A DNA stretch of 64,000 nt, taken from contig QZKH01000006.1 of the NCBI GenBank assembly GCA_003598025.1, forward strand, positions 108,035 through 172,034, given 5' to 3'. Source of the DNA: Candidatus Omnitrophota bacterium (GTDB taxonomy: Bacteria; Omnitrophota; Gorgyraeia; Gygaellales; Profunditerraquicolaceae). Each line of letters opens with the position of its first letter. Within the stretch, counting starts at the first letter, position 1. Below, piece by piece: positions 54,830-64,000 of this stretch. A program made the position numbers and the translations under genes. Below the pieces are notes generated by a model. The model had not been told where the DNA came from. It was given only the letters and a program-made list of their open reading frames with translations, and searched no databases.

Positions 54830-55432
54830 ATGGCAAATTATACAGAGACAATCGAGAGACTTATCGAAAGGCTCACTAAACTACCCGGCATAGGCAGGCG
54901 CAGCGCAGAGCGTATTGTCGGCTATATCCTTAATAGCGCCTCTGTTGATGAAGTAAAGGTTTTGGCAGAGCTTATCAATAAAGTAAAAGAAAATGTGAAG
55001 AGCTGCCGGATCTGCAATAATTTAAGCGAAGAAGAAACATGCAGAATCTGCAAAGATGTACGCAGAAGAAAAGATTTGATCTGTATAGTTGAAAATCCCA
55101 GCGATGTGAATGCGATTGAAAAAGCGGGGAATTTTACGGGCGTCTACCATGTCCTTATGGGTTCGATTTCCCCTCTGGAGGGCAGGGGGCCTTCGGAACT
55201 TAAGATAGATAGCCTGATAAAGAGGATAAAAGAAGATAATGTTAAAGAGATAGTCATTGCTACCGATGCAGATACAGACGGGGAAACCACCGCTATGTAT
55301 CTTATGAAATTGCTCAAACCTTTAGGTATTCAGATTTCCCGTATCGGAGTAGGTATACCTATGGGTTCGAATCTTGAGTATGCAGACTCTGCAACCTTAG
55401 CCAAGGCCCTGGAATCTCGCCGCACAATCTAA
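54830..55432 (+). CDS. recR: recombination protein RecR
   Basis: HhH, C4 zinc finger (CRICNNLSEEETCRIC) and Toprim. Confidence 0.9.
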   Translation: MANYTETIERLIERLTKLPGIGRRSAERIVGYILNSASVDEVKVLAELINKVKENVKSCRICNNLSEEETCRICKDVRRRKDLICIVENPSDVNAIEKAGNFTGVYHVLMGSISPLEGRGPSELKIDSLIKRIKEDNVKEIVIATDADTDGETTAMYLMKLLKPLGIQISRIGVGIPMGSNLEYADSATLAKALESRRTI

Positions 55433-55436
55433 TCCG

Positions 55437-57368
55437 ATGATTACTATAACAAATCTTTCAAAAAGTTACGGCAAAAAGGAACTTTTTAGGAACGTTTCTT
55501 TAACCATTAACCGCGGGGAAAAAATCGGGCTTATCGGCCCTAACGGCGCGGGGAAAAGCACGCTTTTTTACCTTATCCTGAAAGAGCTTGAGCCGTCTTC
55601 CGGGGATGTGCATGTGCAGAAAAATACGCATATAGGATACCTGCCTCAAGAAGCAAGCTTTCATTCTGAGAGGACAATATTACAGGAATTGACCGAGGGG
55701 GATAAGAGGGTGTTAAGTCTGCGTAAGGAGAAAAGGGAGCTAGAAGATAAGAATGAGGCAGGTTCTCTAAGATACGGCGAAATACTGCATGCATTGGAAT
55801 CATTAGGTTTTTTTGAGCTGGAGCATAAGGCAAAGAAAATACTTATGGGCCTGGGTTTTAAAGAGAAGGATTTTAACAGGCCGATAAAAGAATTAAGCGG
55901 TGGTTGGCAGATGCGCGTATTATTGGCTAATCTCCTTACCTATGCTTATGATATTTTATTACTGGATGAGCCTACGAACTATCTGGACCTGGGTGCTGCT
56001 CTTTGGTTAAAAGATTACCTGGAAGGCTTTGAGGGGACATTCATAATGATATCCCACGATAGGGATTTTCTTACGGATGTGACAAATTATACGTTGATAT
56101 TAGAGAACGGAAGTATTACTAAAGTGCATGGTAATTACGAACATTATGAGCAGATAAAAAATGAAAAGCGTAAATTTTTGCTGAAGCAATTTAAGGAACA
56201 AGAAAAGAAAAAAGAACAGCTAGAGAGGTTCGTTGAGCGTTTCCATGCCCAACCGAATAAAGCCGCATCTGTCCGTGCCAAGCGCAGGGTTTTGGAGAGA
56301 ATGGAAGAAGAGGCGGTAGTCTTACCGCCTGATCCGCGTGAAAGTATCGGCAGTTTTAAATTCCCCCAGGCCAGAAAAAGCGGGCATAGGGTCATCTCGT
56401 TAAAAAATATATCTAAATCATATGGTGATATCCAGGTATATAAAGATTTTGATTTTGAGATTATGCAGAATGAAAAGGCAGTACTTGCCGGCGAGAACGG
56501 TGCGGGAAAATCCACGTTATTAAAGATACTTGCAGGAGTTATAGATATTGATAACGGAGAAAGGGCTATAGGCTACAATGTAGATATAGGTTATTTTTCG
56601 CAGACCAGGATGGATGTGCTTAATCCCGAGAATACGGTTTTAGAAGAAGCATATACCGCAAGCCCAGGCTCCATGGCAGAGGAAGTGGTGCGCACTATTT
56701 TAGGAGCTTTTTTATTTACCGGAGATGATTCTGATAAAAAAGTCAAAGTATTATCAGGAGGAGAAAAGAGCAGGCTTATACTTGCCAAACTTCTAATTGA
56801 CCCGCCGAATTTTCTTTTGCTTGATGAGCCTACTACTCATCTTGATGTAGATGCGGTCGATGCCTTGATAATGGCGCTTAAAGATTATGAAGGCACGCTT
56901 GTTTTTATCAGCCATGACATACATTTTGTGCGCTCTGTGGCAAATGTAGTCTTTGAGGTAAAAGATGGGAAAGTGAGGAAATTCCCCGGCAATTTTGATT
57001 ATTATTTGGAGAAGAGGTCTACCGAACTAAACGTCCTTCCTGAAAAAAACATAAAACGCGATAAGAATAAAGTGGCTTTAGAAGAAGCAAGAGAACTAAA
57101 GAAACTCGAAGAAAAGAGGAAGAGAGAAGAAGAAAAGAAACGCAAATCGTATAATGATGCGATTCGTGATAAGATTACGAAGTTGGTAAAGGAAAAGCAA
57201 GAGTTGAACCTGGAAAGTTATGCTAAGTCCCGCGCTTTGTCGAATCCCAGGATATTCCGCGATGAAGAAACTGTTAAAGCATATGGCAGAAGGCTTAAAG
57301 AGATAGAAAAGCTTTTACAGGAGATAGATAAGGGAATTGAAGATTTAAAGTCACAGATTATTAGATAA
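55437..57368 (+). CDS. ABC-F family ATPase (two ABC domains, coiled-coil C-terminus)
   Basis: Two Walker A sites (GPNGAGKST, GENGAGKST) and two LSGG signatures. No TMD. Confidence 0.85.
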   Translation: MITITNLSKSYGKKELFRNVSLTINRGEKIGLIGPNGAGKSTLFYLILKELEPSSGDVHVQKNTHIGYLPQEASFHSERTILQELTEGDKRVLSLRKEKRELEDKNEAGSLRYGEILHALESLGFFELEHKAKKILMGLGFKEKDFNRPIKELSGGWQMRVLLANLLTYAYDILLLDEPTNYLDLGAALWLKDYLEGFEGTFIMISHDRDFLTDVTNYTLILENGSITKVHGNYEHYEQIKNEKRKFLLKQFKEQEKKKEQLERFVERFHAQPNKAASVRAKRRVLERMEEEAVVLPPDPRESIGSFKFPQARKSGHRVISLKNISKSYGDIQVYKDFDFEIMQNEKAVLAGENGAGKSTLLKILAGVIDIDNGERAIGYNVDIGYFSQTRMDVLNPENTVLEEAYTASPGSMAEEVVRTILGAFLFTGDDSDKKVKVLSGGEKSRLILAKLLIDPPNFLLLDEPTTHLDVDAVDALIMALKDYEGTLVFISHDIHFVRSVANVVFEVKDGKVRKFPGNFDYYLEKRSTELNVLPEKNIKRDKNKVALEEARELKKLEEKRKREEEKKRKSYNDAIRDKITKLVKEKQELNLESYAKSRALSNPRIFRDEETVKAYGRRLKEIEKLLQEIDKGIEDLKSQIIR

Positions 57369-57387
57369 GTGGCATTATAGCAACAAA

Positions 57388-57418
57388 AAGACCAGCAAAA
57401 AATATGCTGGTCTTTTTT
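57388..57418 (+). terminator. bidirectional rho-independent terminator
   Basis: aagaccagca-aaaaatat-gctggtctt followed by tttttaa. It is a member of a three-copy repeat family. Confidence 0.6.
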
Positions 57419-57490
57419 AATTTGGTTCCCGTATTGGATGAGTTTCCGAACCGGTGTATGACAGAGGAGGCAGAGGAAATGGCCGGTGAA

Positions 57491-57820
57491 TTAAACCTTA
57501 CAGCCGCAATTCTTGTTGCGTAAAATTTCTATTTGTTTTTTGCGGGAATCTACAAATACAGATTGTTTTTTGATACCGCTGGCAAGAATGCGATTGAGGC
57601 TACTGTAATGATGATATCCCCTAAGTTTCATTTCATTGGTAAGCATCTTATGTCTTACATATAGAGCCGCTAATTTACCTTTCCATCTCAAGGTTTCCGG
57701 ATGCCTAGAATATCCTTTTTTGTTGTTTGTTAAAATGGACCATACGGCATGCAATTCTCTATGTTCTCCCAATAGATGATTACGGCATAATTTTCTTGGT
57801 GCGATGTCCCATATTCTCAT
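57491..57820 (-). CDS. pyrimidine dimer DNA glycosylase (T4 endonuclease V / DenV family)
   Basis: MRIWDIAPRKLCRNHLLGEHRELHAVW...GYSRHPE matches the Pyr_excise family. Start moved to the internal M of the 125-aa ORF. Confidence 0.6.
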   Translation of the reverse strand: MRIWDIAPRKLCRNHLLGEHRELHAVWSILTNNKKGYSRHPETLRWKGKLAALYVRHKMLTNEMKLRGYHHYSSLNRILASGIKKQSVFVDSRKKQIEILRNKNCGCKV

Positions 57821-57962
57821 GTTTTTATAATACACAAAAACAAAACCCTCAGCAACATGTTTTGTCACAGAGGGTTAAGTTTAATTGGCTCCCCCAAGAC
57901 TACGATTTTCGCAACTTTCTAGAGGAGTTCACCGAATTGCGTCTAGCCATAGGGCGGAAATT

Positions 57963-58760
57963 TTATTCAAATTTAAAACTATTTAGTTTATTTTCTACCT
58001 CTTCCGCCGCTTGGACATTACCTTCTTTCAAAAATAACTCTTTAGCCTTTATAAAACTGTTTCTTGCCTTGTCATATTCCTGAAAATACAAATATACGCC
58101 TCCTAGTCCAGAGTGTGCTAATGCAAAATTAGGATCTAATCTGACAGCCTCACTGAAAGAATCTTTTACCTTTTGAGGGTTAGAAAGATAATTATATACC
58201 ATGCCAATATCAAAATATAGTTTCGCATTCTCAGGCTCTATCTCAGTAGCCTTATTATAATAAAATAAGCTTTTTTGATAGTCTTGTAATTCATCATAAA
58301 GTTTGCCAAGAGCAATATATGGCTCAGAAGAATTAGGGCTTAATTTAAGAGCAGTTTCAAAGTTATCCTTCGCCTCATCATATCTCCTCAGCACAGCATA
58401 AACAACACCCAGATTTTGATAGCCCTCAAAAGATTGCGGTTCAATATCAATTAAATCACGAAACTCTTTTATAGCCTCTTCATATTTTCCCTCTGCAAAA
58501 TACCTTTTTCCTTCAGCAATATGTTTGCCCTTCGGAGAAGTATAGAATAATTCTGTTGCGGATCCTCCATCAATTCTGTTAATCTCATCAAAATAATAAG
58601 TGACTTCTATATCGTAACCTATATTGATCTTGACGCTTTCATTAGTTCTTTCTATTATTTTGCCTTCGATAGTCTTTCCTGAATTTAAAATAATAGTTTC
58701 AGCAAAAACATTATTCATCAAAATCAATACAAGCGTAACTAAAATAACCAATACTTTCAT
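57963..58760 (-). CDS. secreted TPR-repeat protein
   Basis: Signal peptide MKVLVILVTLVLILMNNVFA plus multiple TPR motifs. Confidence 0.7.
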   Translation of the reverse strand: MKVLVILVTLVLILMNNVFAETIILNSGKTIEGKIIERTNESVKINIGYDIEVTYYFDEINRIDGGSATELFYTSPKGKHIAEGKRYFAEGKYEEAIKEFRDLIDIEPQSFEGYQNLGVVYAVLRRYDEAKDNFETALKLSPNSSEPYIALGKLYDELQDYQKSLFYYNKATEIEPENAKLYFDIGMVYNYLSNPQKVKDSFSEAVRLDPNFALAHSGLGGVYLYFQEYDKARNSFIKAKELFLKEGNVQAAEEVENKLNSFKFE

Positions 58761-58871
58761 TTCTTATTTTTATTGCTATTATTAATCAAAATTATAGAGA
58801 ATCCTCCAAGGTTTATTATAACACAGAGCATCAAAAAATCCAGCCTCTCTCGTGGGAGACAGAAAGCAAAA

Positions 58872-58897
58872 AGCCCAGCAAAAATATGCTGGGCTTT
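58872..58897 (+). terminator. terminator-like hairpin repeat (second copy)
   Basis: aagcccagca-aaaatat-gctgggctttt is ~85% identical to the 57388 hairpin including its flanks. Confidence 0.4.
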
Positions 58898-59024
58898 TCA
58901 AATTGGCTCCCCCTCTCGGCGCCGAACTTCGTTCGGCACTCCCTCACTTGCCTATGGCAAGTTCGGTCGCTCAACCTGTGCCTTTGGCACAGGTTCTTTG
59001 TATCACGCAGAGAAATAAATAAAA

Positions 59025-59058
59025 TAGCCTCCGGTTTTACCGGAGGCTATTTTATTTA
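59025..59058 (-). terminator. rho-independent terminator downstream of tRNA-Asn (minus strand)
   Basis: Perfect 10-bp stem tagcctccgg/ccggaggcta with T-runs on both strands. Confidence 0.55.
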
Positions 59059-59059
59059 A

Positions 59060-59323
59060 CTCCCCCTCGAGGACTCGAACCTCGGACCTGGTGGTTACAC
59101 TTAACCCGAAATTACTTCCGGAAGTGGACTATCTCATCTCCATAGCACTTGCAGTAGGAGGCGGGTATATAGTCTCTGCACATTTACTTACGTATTACCG
59201 TAAGATTTAGCTCAGGATTTCCCAAAATGGGATTCCCTGAATTAGCCCGCTTTTTCAACCACGGTTTCCCGTAGAAGCTGCCCTATTGACAGCCACTCGC
59301 TCTACCGACTGAGCTAAGGGGGA
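59060..59323 (-). tRNA. tRNA-Asn(GUU) interrupted by a group I intron (exons 59289-59323 and 59060-59097)
   Basis: Minus-strand exons join to TCCCCCTTAGCTCAGTCGGTAGAGCGAGTGGCTGT+TAACCACCAGGTCCGAGGTTCGAGTCCTCGAGGGGGAG. This gives U1-A72, anticodon loop CUGUUAA, G73 and T-loop TTCGAGT, as in bacterial tRNA-Asn. Confidence 0.7.
59098..59288 (-). ncRNA. group I self-splicing intron (191 nt) in the anticodon loop, between positions 35 and 36
   Basis: The 5' exon ends in U and pairs (GGCUGU with GCAGCU, U-G wobble at the splice site) with an internal guide. Core elements P (UCAGGGAA), Q (AAUCCUGA), R (GCAGAGACUAUA) and S (GAGAUAGUCC) are present. The intron ends in G. Confidence 0.65.
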
Positions 59324-59335
59324 ATAGTATCAAAT

Positions 59336-59363
59336 ATTTTACATGAAATAATCTCTCAGTCAA
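59336..59363 (-). promoter_or_regulatory. promoter for the intron-containing tRNA-Asn (TTGACT-16-TAAAAT on minus strand)
   Basis: -35 at 59358-59363 and -10 at 59336-59341 (plus-strand coordinates), about 13 nt upstream of the tRNA 5' end. Confidence 0.4.
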
Positions 59364-59730
59364 TACTATTTCTAGTAAGTGGTAGCCGTCTCATGTTGCG
59401 CCACTCCGCAGTCATCTACTGGCTGTAGGGATTCAAATATTTATTGATTAATCTTTTGGAAGGATTTAATTAATTGAAAAGCATACGCATTCTATATAGG
59501 GGCGGGACACTTCCTATGTATTCCATTATGGACCATAAGGATAGAAGGAAACGGTCCTCAGGATTCCAAGGCGCGGATCCGTTTCTCAATGCCCGGCATA
59601 TTTTTGCTGGGCTTTTTATTTTTGGTTTTACGGTAAGAAGTTTGATTTATTGACACCCTGTGTAAAATGCATTATAAATCGTCTTTATTTAAAGCGTTTA
59701 ATTTACAGAACATTAAATAGGGGGTAAAAG

Positions 59731-60114
59731 ATGAAAATAAGATGGAAAGTAGTTCTTTTTATCCTAGTTTTCTTAGTTATTATGTTTCGTGGGTGTTTTT
59801 CTTCTTATGAAGCCGCAACAAAAAGTGATGATAAGGTTGTAGCTGCTATCCAGTCTGAATTAGACAAAGGCCGTTCTCCGGAAGAAATAAAAGTTTATTT
59901 AGAGAAAAACAAAAGAGTTTTGGATATCAGTGAAGTAGAATTTGGCGTATACGATGATAGTAATCCCAACAGGCCGCTCAGAAAGAAAAAGGTCCTTACA
60001 ATTTATTCAACAATATTTTCTTGGGCAGCATTCAGTAAAGGCAGGCAGGGAGCAATGAATGTTGCTATTGATGAGGATAATAAGATCAAGAGTGTTTATT
60101 GGGTACCGATGTAA
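59731..60114 (+). CDS. hypothetical secreted protein
   Basis: N-terminal hydrophobic signal, gggggtaaaag RBS, terminator hairpin downstream (~60207-60240). Confidence 0.5.
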   Translation: MKIRWKVVLFILVFLVIMFRGCFSSYEAATKSDDKVVAAIQSELDKGRSPEEIKVYLEKNKRVLDISEVEFGVYDDSNPNRPLRKKKVLTIYSTIFSWAAFSKGRQGAMNVAIDEDNKIKSVYWVPM

Positions 60115-60321
60115 AACAGGCAATTAGATTAAGGTTTTTTACGGTCCTTTATGTCAAATATAATAGAAAAGGTTCGTTGGTTTTTTAGGTGAGAGGCCAG
60201 TTTCAAAAGCCCGACATTGATTTGTTGGGCTTTTTTGTTGCCTAATGATCACCTTCGACTTAACTTGCTTTATTAACCTCTCGTGGTAAAATAGATTAAC
60301 ATATCAGGTTTTCCGTATTTC

Positions 60322-60455: not shown

Positions 60456-61226
60456 ATGAAAGAAAATCTATCCGTAGTCATTTTAGTCAAGAATGAAGAG
60501 CAAAGAATAGCTAAATGCCTTGATTCTGTGAGATGGGCTGACGAGATCATTGTGGTCGATGATGAAAGCACTGACAGGACAGTTGAAATCGCCCGTCAAT
60601 ATACATCAAAAGTATTTACTGACAAAAAAAAGGATATTGAAGGCAGGCATAGGAATTGGTCATATAGCCTGGCAAGAAATACCTGGGTTTTGAGCCTGGA
60701 TGCAGACGAAATAGTCACTCCGGAATTGAAAGAAGAGATAATACAGGCCATAAGGAGTAACCCTGTTGAAAACGGTTTTACCATTCCGCGCAGAAACTAC
60801 ATAGGTAATTATTGGGTCCGTCACGGAGGTTGGTACCCCAGCCCGCAGTTAAAACTCTTTAAAAGAGATAAATTCAAACATGAAGAAGTGGAGATACATG
60901 GGCGTGCTTTTATGGATGGCCCTTGCGGCCATTTGAAATACGACATTATCCACTATTCATACCGAGATATTGAAGATCTTATCCGGAAACTCAACAATCA
61001 GACAACCTGGGAAGCTCAAAAATGGCATAGATTACATAAGCCTATGCGTTTCGGAAGGTTCTTCTACAGGAGTATTGACAGATTTATCAGGACATACATT
61101 GCCAAAAAAGGCTATAAAGACGGCTTCATGGGGTTTGTGGTTGCCTTTAACGGAGCTTTATACCAGATCGTCAGTTATTTAAAATACCGGGAAATTATAT
61201 TAAATGAAAAAGAAAAAAATAAATAG
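60456..61226 (+). CDS. family 2 glycosyltransferase
   Basis: SVVILVKNEE...VVDDESTD...LDADE GT2 motifs. Confidence 0.8.
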   Translation: MKENLSVVILVKNEEQRIAKCLDSVRWADEIIVVDDESTDRTVEIARQYTSKVFTDKKKDIEGRHRNWSYSLARNTWVLSLDADEIVTPELKEEIIQAIRSNPVENGFTIPRRNYIGNYWVRHGGWYPSPQLKLFKRDKFKHEEVEIHGRAFMDGPCGHLKYDIIHYSYRDIEDLIRKLNNQTTWEAQKWHRLHKPMRFGRFFYRSIDRFIRTYIAKKGYKDGFMGFVVAFNGALYQIVSYLKYREIILNEKEKNK

Positions 61227-61677
61227 CCAGAGCCCTAATTTCATAAAGGAAGTATCAGGGGTTTTAATATTAATGATATGTTTGTGCGCTCCGGTTTTTG
61301 CCTTTGCTGAAACAATTAATTTAAAATCCGGGCAAAGATTAGAAAATGTAAAAATAACGGAAAAGACTGAAGAGTATGTCAAAGTTTATAATTATAGTAT
61401 TCTTGACGACGGCCAAGATGCAGGTTTTGTCATTACTTACAAAACAAGTGAAATCGACAGCATAGAGCCGGATAAAAGCTATAGAAAACATTCTGTGGTA
61501 TTAAATAAGATAGTCCTCAAATCTGGCGATGTAAAAATGGGGGTAATAGCAGATGCGAATCAAGATAATATAAAATTAGAAGATGCCGAAGGCTCCTCAA
61601 TGATTTATCCTTGGGATGATATTGATACTATAGATGGCAGGCAAGCAGGAGATTTAAAATCCAGTTTAAAACTTTAA
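61204..61677 (+). CDS. hypothetical secreted protein
   Basis: Lys-rich N-terminus plus signal peptide (LILMICLCAPVFAFA). Confidence 0.5.
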   Translation: MKKKKINSQSPNFIKEVSGVLILMICLCAPVFAFAETINLKSGQRLENVKITEKTEEYVKVYNYSILDDGQDAGFVITYKTSEIDSIEPDKSYRKHSVVLNKIVLKSGDVKMGVIADANQDNIKLEDAEGSSMIYPWDDIDTIDGRQAGDLKSSLKL

Positions 61678-61693
61678 ATCCAATAAATCCGCC

Positions 61694-62176
61694 ATGGCAA
61701 AAAAGCTCCAATTTATTATGGTATGGTTCCTCCCGCTTATTGTAATAGGCGGGTTTTTTTATCCATTACTGGGATACCTGGTAGTAGCGATGATGGCTTT
61801 CTTTTTAACGCTGTCGTTTTTTAAAGGCCGGTATTGGTGCTGGCACCTTTGCCCCAGGGGAGCCTTTTTAGATATTATTATCTCAAAACTTAGCTTCAAT
61901 AGGCCGTTACCAGGGATTTTTCTCAAGCAATGGTTCCGCTGGCTTATATTTTTCTTGTTTCTCAGTTTTTTAGCATTCCGTGTAACCAAGGCAGGCGCAA
62001 GCTTAATTGCTATAGGGATAATCTTCATTATAACTTGCCTAGTTACAACAATTATCTCGGTCATATTAGGTATTTCACTAAAACACAGAAGTTGGTGCGC
62101 TATTTGCCCAATGGGGACTCTCCAGGAAAAGATCGGCAAAATACATCAGTTCAAAGTAAAGAGCCAGCCTAAATAA
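61694..62176 (+). CDS. small polytopic membrane protein with two CxxCP motifs (NapH/MauN-type Fer4_5-like)
   Basis: CWHLCPRGAF and WCAICPMGTL motifs between TM helices. Confidence 0.5.
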   Translation: MAKKLQFIMVWFLPLIVIGGFFYPLLGYLVVAMMAFFLTLSFFKGRYWCWHLCPRGAFLDIIISKLSFNRPLPGIFLKQWFRWLIFFLFLSFLAFRVTKAGASLIAIGIIFIITCLVTTIISVILGISLKHRSWCAICPMGTLQEKIGKIHQFKVKSQPK

Positions 62177-62266
62177 TGAAACCAGCACCTCGTTTGATCT
62201 TTCAGCTTTCTTAATTCCACTTGTTTATAAAACTTTAATGATTATAATATAAATAAAAGGGAAAAT

Positions 62267-62376
62267 TTATACGTTCGCGGCCACAAACCCGCACCTTTCA
62301 AGTTGCGGATGGAGTGTGTACGCTCAGTATTTCGCTCCAAGAAACCTCGGGCTTTAACCCAAGGAGCTTCATTTGT
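62267..62376 (+). promoter_or_regulatory. conserved ~110-nt 5' leader element, copy 2
   Basis: See copy 1. Ends ~47 nt before the B12-binding radical SAM ATG. Confidence 0.4.
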
Positions 62377-62423
62377 AATCCTTTGTTTATCAGGTAGTTA
62401 GATAGGGACGATTTTAATCAATC

Positions 62424-63749
62424 ATGAAGATAGCTCTTGTTAATCTATTTTATAAACACGCAATGCCATGTCCTCCGCATGGAATCTTAAGCTTGATCAG
62501 TTTTTTAAATAAAGAATTTGGGGACAAAATAAAAGTCAGGTATTTTGATGAGTTGCCCGGGGTGGATATTAAAAAGGCGGTTATGGGGTTTAACCCCGAG
62601 TTTATAGGGATATCTTCTTTTACTCGTACCATAAACAGGGCCTATGAACTGGCGGATTATTTTAGAAAAAAGACTGATAGTATTGTGGCGTTGGGAGGGT
62701 TGCATCCTAGCATTCTGCCAGAAGAGAGCGCAAAATATGCAGATTATGTTATTGTGGGTGAGGGTGAAAAGGGGCTGGCAAGTTTAATTGGGAGTATCCT
62801 GGAAGGGAAGAGGCATCCTGGGCAACTGATATTCTCTGAGGCAATAGAGAACTTAGATTCTTTGCCGCAGTTTCCCTGGGATGTGCTAGACAGAGATTAC
62901 TATTCAGAAAGTAGCCAGTATACAATGGAGCATTTTGGCCTTCAGAAGAGCGATAAATACGTTGCTCTTTTGACTTCCCGGGGGTGCCCTTATAGGTGTA
63001 TGTTTTGTTATTCAAGTAAATCGCCCACAAGAGTACGCTATTTTTCTTCAGAGAGGATAATATCTGATATCGAATATTTCCTGGAAGAGTGGAAAGTGAA
63101 TTATTTCATTTTTAGTGATGATGATTTTTTATCTAATAAGGAAAGATTAAACCAATTCTGCAAATTAATTGATAAGAAAGGGCTGCAATTTAAATGGGGT
63201 TGCCAGGCTAACGTGGATAGCGTTGAGCCCGAAACATTAAGATTGATAAAGCAGCATGGGTGTGAAATCATTGCCTATGGGTTTGAGAGTGGTTCCCAAA
63301 AAATATTAAATTTCTTAAAAGGCAGAAGGGCAGATATCAGAGATAACAAATACGCTATTCATATTACTAAAAAAGCAGGCATTAAGGTATTTGGTTATAT
63401 AATGCTTGGTGTCCCTACCGAAACGCTCATGGATCTTTTTAAGACATTTTATTTTACACTGTTTAGCCCAATTGATATTATATCGCCAGGCAGGATCGTA
63501 GTCTATCCCGGAACAAAACTATGGGATTGGTGCGTTGAGAAAAATATTTTTAATGAGTCCGAGATTGACTTCACTAAGCCTTATAAGTATATTTATTTAA
63601 ATAATAAATATGTCCCTGAGAAATTCTTTGGGATGTTATATTATGGATTTCATAGGTTGGCAATTCCGGTTAAATGTCTGCTGCAGAGGAAGTTTGTTTT
63701 TGCTAAAACTTGGCGCACGGTCATAAATAAAGATAGAAAGAAAGAATAA
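62424..63749 (+). CDS. B12-binding domain radical SAM protein
   Basis: N-terminal B12-binding-like region then CPYRCMFC radical SAM motif. Confidence 0.8.
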   Translation: MKIALVNLFYKHAMPCPPHGILSLISFLNKEFGDKIKVRYFDELPGVDIKKAVMGFNPEFIGISSFTRTINRAYELADYFRKKTDSIVALGGLHPSILPEESAKYADYVIVGEGEKGLASLIGSILEGKRHPGQLIFSEAIENLDSLPQFPWDVLDRDYYSESSQYTMEHFGLQKSDKYVALLTSRGCPYRCMFCYSSKSPTRVRYFSSERIISDIEYFLEEWKVNYFIFSDDDFLSNKERLNQFCKLIDKKGLQFKWGCQANVDSVEPETLRLIKQHGCEIIAYGFESGSQKILNFLKGRRADIRDNKYAIHITKKAGIKVFGYIMLGVPTETLMDLFKTFYFTLFSPIDIISPGRIVVYPGTKLWDWCVEKNIFNESEIDFTKPYKYIYLNNKYVPEKFFGMLYYGFHRLAIPVKCLLQRKFVFAKTWRTVINKDRKKE

Positions 63750-63798
63750 AGATAATTAGTTTATTGTTTTTGCGTAGGCCAATTTAATAGGAGAGAGG

Positions 63799-64000
63799 AT
63801 GGAGCACGTTATTCACGAGGAGAGGCGGCTAAGTTTTTTTGAAAGGTATCTTACCGGATGGGTTATCCTTTGTATCGGGCTCGGGATAGCACTCGGTAAA
63901 TTATTCCCGCAGGTATCAATTAAGCTTGACCAATTCTCTATTTTTCAGGTTTCTATACCTATCGCCGTGTGCCTGTTTTTTATGATGTATCCGATCATGG
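63799..64000 (+). CDS. ACR3-family arsenite efflux transporter (3' truncated at window edge)
   Basis: [37 protein letters not shown] matches the ACR3 N-terminus. aggagagagg RBS. Confidence 0.6.

Follow-up and report, generated by a model that had tools for sequence, protein, structure and literature searches.

A tRNA-Asn(GUU) gene of an Omnitrophota bacterium with a minimal, very probably self-splicing group I intron between anticodon positions 35 and 36

Introduction

Which tRNA is encoded by two half-genes that lie 191 nucleotides (nt) apart, and is the sequence between them a working ribozyme or a decayed one? These questions are raised by a minus-strand locus (59060-59323) in a 64,000-nt stretch of contig QZKH01000006.1. 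This whole stretch is referred to as the window, and coordinates without a prefix are positions within it. An earlier reading, made from the letters of the DNA alone, had proposed a tRNA-Asn(GUU) gene interrupted by a 191-nt group I intron. Judged from its sequence, the locus is very probably a functional Omnitrophota gene for tRNA-Asn(GUU), in which a 191-nt self-splicing group I intron of the tRNA-Asn/Asp 35/36 family separates positions 35 and 36.

Results and discussion

The joined exons form tRNA-Asn(GUU)

Read on the minus strand, the locus has the form UCCCCCUUAGCUCAGUCGGUAGAGCGAGUGGCUGU / CAAUAGGGCAGCUUC...GGGUUAAGUG / UAACCACCAGGUCCGAGGUUCGAGUCCUCGAGGGGGAG, i.e. 5' exon, intron and 3' exon. 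The 5' exon (59289..59323) comprises 35 nt equivalent to tRNA-Asn positions 1-35 (UCCCCCU UA GCUC AGUCGGUA GAGC G AGUGG CUGU). Its terminus reads ...GGCUGU, with a CUGU end that is invariant in 60/60 homologues, and its last nucleotide, U35, is the U-1 of the intron. The group I intron itself (59098..59288) is 191 nt long, begins with CAAUAGG, ends with ...AAGUG and holds no open reading frame (ORF); intron position i lies at window coordinate 59289 - i. The 3' exon (59060..59097), with 38 nt for positions 36-73, begins with UAACCACC and reads UAA CCACC AGGUC CGAGG UUCGAGU CCUCG AGGGGGA G. The gene ends in GAG/UUAAAU and does not encode CCA, which must therefore be added after transcription.

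When 59323-59289 and 59097-59060 were joined, ARAGORN called the spliced sequence as a 73-nt tRNA-Asn(gtt), a cloverleaf with anticodon GUU and a perfect 7-bp acceptor stem with U1-A72, plus G73, just as the sequence-only reading had described it. Bacterial tRNA-Asn typically carries U1-A72 and G73. Metagenome contigs were scanned with the spliced sequence across the Asn junction, which yielded 35 contigs with uninterrupted tRNA genes. The spliced product of the window is identical (73/73) to the uninterrupted tRNA-Asn genes on 14 of these 35 contigs, and on many of the intron-less contigs the gene adjoins recR and abcF homologues with 63-74% amino-acid identity. The insertion proposed between anticodon nucleotides 35 and 36 is thus upheld, as the product of that junction equals intron-less tRNA-Asn(GTT) genes.

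Standard gene finding gave a different picture. ARAGORN in plain mode made no call at the locus, and in intron mode it reported tRNA-Thr(tgt) with a 191-nt intron shifted by 2 nt to 33/34, starting with GUCAAUAG and ending in ...GUUAAG. A tRNA-Thr(UGU) with an intron of equal length at 33/34, two nucleotides upstream, has in its favour not only this report but also that the 5' site would follow a U and the intron would end in G. The same holds for the Asn junction, so this rule cannot decide between the two. The pairing within P1 does distinguish them. In 60/60 homologues G is the partner of U35 and A that of U33, and the wobble U by which a group I 5' splice site is recognised is thus U35 only. 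The tRNA body, with U1-A72 and G73, is also of a kind generally known for tRNA-Asn. In addition, the two-base shift is a documented artefact of ARAGORN/tFind in the 35/36 family, disproved there by sequenced spliced products (PMC13011429). The 33/34 call of ARAGORN was ruled out by the U33:A pairing together with the exact match of the Asn product to intron-less genes, and we regard a tRNA-Thr(UGU) at this locus as exceedingly improbable. A splice site at the 3' end of the Rfam model match (59105) was also rejected; the model does not place the terminal G, and the anticodon loop would be impossible.

The intervening sequence has a conserved group I core

The Rfam model RF00028 (Intron_gpI) matched 59298-59105 on the minus strand over its whole length with 73.5 bits (gathering score 50, E 9.3e-17), which is far beyond chance. 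The covariance-model check suggested by the sequence-only reading thus gave a match above the gathering score and, with the Asn call for the joined exons, bears out a tRNA-Asn(GUU) split by a group I intron. For comparison with relatives, 60 family members with introns of at most 300 nt were aligned with MAFFT and the helices of the window intron were mapped onto the columns. Because one conserved motif served to recruit every member, the invariance of P1' and of the P2 flanks is built in. Over the 60 sequences, 90.4% of the structure cells were paired, compared with 75.6% in column shuffles and 30-50% when partners were slid by 1-3 columns, and changes on both sides occurred in 37/55 pairs. 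Compensatory changes were found in P2, P3, P4, P5, P8, P9.0 and P9; no sequence departs from the U-1:G wobble or the terminal G, P7 is almost as constant (299/300 cells), and the window intron holds every invariant column. Folding of the window sequence alone (z = -3.1) recovered P1, P2, P3, P4, P5, P6, P6a, P8, P9.0 and P9. P7 is a pseudoknot, which is beyond the reach of the fold method.

The helices, all on the minus strand, are described in their order along the intron. The 3' strand of P1 is the internal guide GCAGCU (59276..59281, intron 8-13), which pairs with exon GGCUGU such that G8 wobbles with U-1; this is the P1 that had been predicted, and its U35:G wobble occurs in all homologues aligned. 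Its four inner pairs are invariant (60/60), and its loop in the window intron is 7 nt. P2 follows as the hairpin CUACGG-GAAA-CCGUGG (59259..59274, intron 15-30), with both-side changes in 5/6 pairs and 98.9% of cells paired. The 5' strand of P3, GCGGG (59246..59250, intron 39-43), has as its partner in the alignment CCCGC at 59161..59165 (intron 124-128); 4/5 pairs covary and 97.7% of cells are paired. The P4-P5 domain (59212..59240, intron 49-77) consists of P4 UCAGGG/UCCUGA and P5 UCCCA/UGGGA, with compensatory changes in P4 and at the base of P5. P6 (GC/GU) and the P6a hairpin (CUUACG/CGUAAG) occupy 59180..59211 (intron 78-109) according to the alignment and the single-sequence fold. P6 is paired in 100% of cells, with mainly one-sided variation; P6a is poorly aligned among relatives (51% paired), and in the window intron the single-sequence fold is what supports it.

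The P7 pseudoknot joins GACUA (59170..59174, intron 115-119), inside the invariant CAGAGACUA, to UAGUC (59127..59131, intron 158-162), inside the conserved GAUAGUCC, in which all columns but one are invariant. Four of its five pairs are invariant in 60/60 and the fifth is found in 59/60. By homology to group I introns, P7 would hold the guanosine-binding site. P4 and P7 had both been read correctly from the sequence alone, and P4 covaries. The spacer from P7 to P3' is UAUA, only 4 nt, which leaves no room for P7.1/P7.2. P8 (59138..59160, intron 129-151) is a CUCC/GGAG stem with a variable top, in which 3/4 pairs covary and 97.1% of cells are paired.

The intron's 3' end required a correction. 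The hairpin ACUUCCGGAAGU, previously taken for a P9-like element, pairs in 25% of cells in relatives, which is the chance level. It is replaced by a conserved P9.0 (CACU/AGUG) that encloses P9 (CCGGAA-GUAA-UUUCGG) at 59098..59126, as seen in both alignment and fold. Three pairs of P9.0 immediately before the terminal G covary, as do 6/6 pairs of P9, which has a GNRA loop. The terminal G (omega G) lies at 59098, directly 3' of the covarying P9.0, and its invariance (60/60) agrees with the 3' splice site assigned earlier.

Proposed splicing pathway and alternative explanations

We propose that the gene would be transcribed from its own promoter and that the guide GCAGCU would then pair with GGCUGU of the anticodon arm to form P1, with U35 in the U:G wobble. 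A free guanosine bound in P7 would attack after U35. The terminal G at 59098, set beside P7 by P9.0, would take over the guanosine site, and the freed 3' OH of U35 would attack after this G, joining U35 to U36 at the predicted junction ...GGCUGUUAACC... The product would have the anticodon loop CUGUUAA, and RNase P and the CCA-adding enzyme would complete the tRNA. These steps are modelled on the family and on general group I chemistry, and guanosine-dependent self-splicing of the window intron is proposed by analogy with a 67%-identical homologue that was spliced in vitro (PMC13011429). Pairing of the guide with 5'-exon GCUGU would also explain why the family resides in tRNAs with GUN anticodons, i.e. 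Asn and Asp, and Tyr in the published table.

The gene has candidate signals on both sides. A promoter-like site, TTGACT-16 nt-TAAAAT (59336..59363, minus strand), has its -10 element end 12 nt upstream of tRNA position 1, a position that suits a short 5' leader. Downstream, a repeat search found an intrinsic terminator (59016..59058, minus strand) that consists of a perfect hairpin of 20 bp with a T run after it. The earlier proposal of an own promoter and terminator therefore stands for the terminator, while the promoter is a consensus match backed by its position.

A number of points weigh against a functional, self-splicing intron. Promoter-like matches in the region do not exceed shuffle expectation, so the putative promoter counts as a consensus match only. 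The motif-based recruitment of relatives makes the invariance of P1' and the P2 flanks uninformative. No convincing P10 pairing of the 3' exon with the guide region was found by eye. P7.1/P7.2, present in most relatives and a possible aid to folding, are absent from the window intron. Finally, the genome may hold another tRNA-Asn gene outside the 64-kb window, within which ARAGORN in plain mode found 8 other tRNAs, none of them Asn.

Some of these points would fit a decayed, non-splicing relic, with the gene a pseudogene and Asn decoded by a tRNA-Asn gene elsewhere. The intron is the shortest member mapped among the matches listed, it has lost P7.1/P7.2 and the endonuclease ORF, the genome was seen only within the 64-kb window, and the locus bears rearrangement scars that include a relic tRNA 3' end 153 nt downstream. 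A relic, however, would hardly be expected to keep every invariant core position, to form all consensus helices but P7 in its single-sequence fold (z = -3.1), to have exons identical to working alleles, and to retain both a promoter-like site and an intact terminator. Moreover, 15 relatives from several phyla share the same short architecture, which argues for a maintained form. Decay is therefore very unlikely, and the gene is very probably functional, as had been suspected; the intact core invariants and the exons identical to those of intron-less genes point to this.

It is also conceivable that the intron is spliced in vivo but not autonomously, a protein cofactor or chaperone having become necessary after the loss of the peripheral helices P7.1/P7.2. 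It is generally known that several group I introns rely on proteins, e.g. CYT-18 or maturases, but the similarly small Azoarcus tRNA-Ile intron (~205 nt) is likewise known to self-splice efficiently. No candidate cofactor gene lies nearby, and the tested relatives of the 35/36 family self-splice (PMC13011429). We consider a dependence on such a protein unlikely. The preferred explanation is thus a functional tRNA-Asn(GUU) gene with a self-splicing intron at 35/36, and the copy in the window is a minimal derivative that has neither P7.1/P7.2 nor the HNH-like ORF in the P1 loop.

Relation to known tRNA introns

The tRNA-Asn host and the 35/36 site, which the sequence-only reading had thought new, are both on record. 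Williams (bioRxiv 10.1101/2020.01.27.920355) catalogued group I introns at 35/36 of tRNA-Asn(GUU) in 2020, according to Nakagawa et al. (mSystems 2026; PMC13011429), who refer to that work for 'Asn.4Ug'; the preprint raised the number of known tRNA/intron settings in bacteria from 4 to 21. In vitro splicing followed in 2026: with guanosine triphosphate (GTP), tRNA-Asn 35/36 introns self-splice precisely, the ligated exons were sequenced, and a terminal G -> C mutation blocks exon ligation in the tested 35/36 intron (PMC13011429). Among 4,934 complete genomes, 28 introns at 35/36 were found, 25/28 of subgroup IA, in Patescibacteria (19), Cyanobacteriota (3), Nitrospirota (3), Bacillota_A (1), Bipolaricaulota (1) and Pseudomonadota (1). 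The published table also lists 35/36 introns in tRNA-Tyr; in the part of the survey table available, the sole entry for Omnitrophota is an fMet 33/34 intron (PMC13011429).

The window intron resembles this published family (PMC13011429) in host gene, insertion site and the rule of U-1 plus terminal G, in its guide GCAGC and core CAGAGACUA and GAUAGUCC, and in the artefactual Thr(UGU) 33/34 annotation. It differs in its host, as Omnitrophota is outside the survey list for 35/36, and in the lack of P7.1/P7.2 and of an endonuclease ORF. Its 191 nt compare with 248-347 nt for the three published Nitrospirota introns. It is thus an additional member of a family and site already described, from a phylum not yet listed. 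With the classical IC3 tRNA introns it shares being a small ORF-less self-splicing ribozyme in the anticodon loop, with P1 formed from the anticodon arm. Those introns, however, occupy other sites and host tRNAs, namely tRNA-Leu(UAA) 34/35, tRNA-fMet 33/34, tRNA-Arg(CCU) 36/37 and tRNA-Ile(CAU) (e.g. Azoarcus), and the published relatives of the window intron are IA1, not IC3. Like the HNH-bearing subgroup IA introns of phages and of Patescibacteria tRNA-Asn, close relatives of the window intron carry an ORF, whereas the window intron has none.

Distribution among bacteria and subgroup assignment

The window intron has a long motif in common with the tRNA-Asn introns published for Nitrospirota (PMC13011429, Table S5); the motif covers the 3' strand of P1, P2 with its GAAA loop, and J2/3. 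A scan of one genome per species with this motif (GCAGCTTC-N5-GAAA-N5-GTTGAAA) matched at least 120 species genomes. Among the matches listed, 99 are valid tRNAs split exactly at 35/36, 97 of them Asn(GTT) and 2 Asp(GTC). By the submitters' labels, these matches include Patescibacteria (26), Nitrospirota (14), Omnitrophota (13), Desulfobacterota (9), Elusimicrobiota (8), Acidobacteriota/Aminicenantes (6), Bacillota (4), Planctomycetota (3) and several others. At 20 of the 120 motif-scan loci listed, ARAGORN in intron mode found no split tRNA, some matches lying at the edge of an 8-kb chunk. These loci include L050 (Flagellimonas pacifica), L089 (Salinimicrobium marinum), L113, L008 and L009; some may be chance matches, or the 5' region of the ribozyme in a different host gene.

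At 191 nt the window intron is the shortest of the 100 mapped among the matches listed, followed by introns of 196, 196, 199 and 199 nt. The suggestion that it is among the smallest group I introns was thus well founded, as it lies near the minimum of 184 nt for the 333 bacterial tRNA introns of the published survey (PMC13011429). Over aligned columns it is 76% identical to the intron of Nitrospirota GCF_900169565.1 and 67% to that of Saccharimonadia GCA_016700035.1; the former is labelled IA1 and the latter was shown to self-splice (PMC13011429). In 45/60 relatives a two-hairpin insertion of 35-50 nt lies between P7 and P3'; it is absent in 15/60, from several phyla. We take the site of this insertion to be the P7.1/P7.2 location of subgroup IA. 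The extra helices between P7 and P3' by which subgroup IA is defined are missing from the window intron, which by its sequence relationships is of the IA1 lineage by descent and does not have the IA architecture.

One match of the scan, a Candidatus Vecturithrix metagenome-assembled genome (MAG; L081), has according to ARAGORN two tRNA-Asn(GTT) genes in tandem, with ~30 nt between them and an intron of ~250 nt in each. An apparent 604-nt intron at this place was discarded as a junction-finding artefact of the two tandem intron-containing genes. Multiple intron copies are unusual according to the published survey (PMC13011429).

Endonuclease-bearing relatives and mobility

Mobile group I introns encode a homing endonuclease. 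The window intron, with 191 nt, has no ORF, and its 7-nt P1 loop leaves it without a mobility function of its own. Introns of 530-585 nt in relatives contain an ORF of 107-125 amino acids in the P1 loop, with CxxC...HH...CANCH motifs. They occur in Omnitrophota (L063, L080, L105 and L108), Planctomycetia (L084), Methylomirabilota (L114), Elusimicrobia (L055) and WWE3 (L002). Pfam matches of these ORFs to HNH (PF01844) were weak (16.5 and 19.8 bits, under the 21.4-bit cut-off), and they agree with the endonuclease family in the literature. Endonuclease-bearing 35/36 IA introns had been reported from Patescibacteria only, with the remark that draft genomes might alter this (PMC13011429). In several relatives (e.g. 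L055, L084, L114 and L002) the 3' end of the ORF reads through P1'-P2-J2/3 (...QLP.ETVVEK...), and in the four Omnitrophota members the ORF is in another frame and stops inside this stretch (...AAS.GNRG). This overlap may explain the strong conservation of P1'-P2-J2/3.

Similarly related Omnitrophota lineages have the same tRNA-Asn with or without an intron. Neighbour joining of the adjacent ABC-F protein placed the intron-less L140 and L145/L156 nested among intron-bearing lineages, and the nearest neighbour of the window is L063, which has the endonuclease-bearing form. As the tree covers one gene and has no support values, repeated gain or loss is no more than suggested by it. It is possible, and we propose it tentatively as something short of probable, that the window intron descends from an HNH-bearing intron with present or recent mobility across many bacterial phyla, and has been minimised naturally with loss of the endonuclease.

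A copy of the intron is also present on a viral contig of 142 kb (L157; IMGVR_UViG_3300020198_000887, IMG/VR). In its tRNA cluster (L157:1300-3800), a tRNA-Asn(GTT) at L157:2402-2670 is split at 35/36 by a 193-nt group I intron (Rfam 59.5 bits), which makes phages a possible vehicle. The same cluster contains a putative tRNA-Leu(TAA) called by ARAGORN with a 689-nt intervening sequence, inside which no Rfam group I match was found. A phage genome collection searched with the window locus returned only a 42-nt tRNA-like match.

Host and genomic neighbourhood

The window encodes RecR, an ABC-F protein, DnaX, B12-binding radical SAM enzymes and similar proteins, a content that indicates a bacterial chromosome rather than a phage. 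Among the matches listed, the closest intron-containing genes (L066, L100, L108, L091, L063 and L117) are all from MAGs labelled Omnitrophota, in which recR-abcF adjoins tRNA-Asn and the proteins are 64-74% identical in amino acids to those of the window. By the recR-abcF-tRNA-Asn linkage and its closest introns, the sequenced host is an Omnitrophota bacterium.

The arrangement at this locus differs from that in relatives. In related Omnitrophota MAGs (e.g. L029 and L117) the tRNA directly follows abcF on the same strand. In the window, the tRNA region (57431-59323) is on the strand opposite to recR-abcF (54830-57368), and between them lie a Pyr_excise-domain gene (57491-57868) and a TPR gene (57963-58760), both on the minus strand. 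This suggests a local inversion or insertion. On the other side (60456-64000 together with L001:1-6337), at least three B12-binding radical SAM genes are clustered with genes for a GT2 glycosyltransferase, a Fer4_5 protein, a PMT_2-family glycosyltransferase and a phosphatidylserine decarboxylase, which may be a cluster for lipid or cell-envelope modification.

A very stable segment (58867-59015, minus strand) lies just 3' of the tRNA terminator; 58860-59030 folds at -78.3 kcal/mol (z = -7.1). The segment contains three hairpins that are perfect palindromes with 3-nt loops, and at its end the tRNA-Asn 3' end recurs, CCA included, as a degenerate second copy, ...CGCCGAGAGGGGGAGCCA (58931-58913). 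This relic, 153 nt downstream of the tRNA-Asn gene, is followed by a second terminator (58900-58867). Similar arrangements were seen at most of the CCA-less tRNA-Asn genes in the Omnitrophota loci examined, with or without intron. There, a terminator is followed by an inverted copy of the tRNA 3' half (AAAACTCCCCCGAGAGGACGAGAACC) and then by variable hairpins, in several loci flanked by conserved GAGCGACCGA...GAGGGAGTG, and the relic tRNA 3' end comes last at most of them; it is clear in L080, L105, L051, L122, L132, L133 and L149. This could be what a small integrating element left behind at tRNA-Asn, or else a structured RNA not described so far. An Rfam search of 58500-59800 for this structured segment returned only sub-threshold, terminator-like matches.

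A terminator-like hairpin (AAAAGCCCAGCA-loop-TGCTGGGCTTTTT) occurs in 4 copies within 3 kb in both orientations (57384-57430, 58869-58898, 59588-59617 and 60196-60235). Two of the copies lie on either side of the tRNA-Asn locus and form a 57-nt inverted repeat with 75% complementarity. The exact 22-nt hairpin pattern had 0 matches in 100 shuffles and is thus not expected by chance.

Significance

Standard tRNA finders miss or mis-call this gene, with no call by ARAGORN in plain mode and Thr(UGU) in intron mode. tRNA-Asn would consequently seem to be missing from an Omnitrophota genome of this kind, and the genome's completeness score would be lower. Comparison of the spliced product with intron-less homologues, the two-step check from the literature, resolves the call here as well. 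How such introns work is understood no differently after this analysis, and its own points are modest: the host phylum, the minimal architecture and the hints of mobility. If the window intron self-splices, its 191 nt and compact core without P7.1/P7.2 would make it a convenient small ribozyme for structural and folding work. For the family, the draft genomes add Omnitrophota and many other phyla to the known range of the tRNA-Asn 35/36 intron, and its endonuclease-bearing versions are found outside Patescibacteria.

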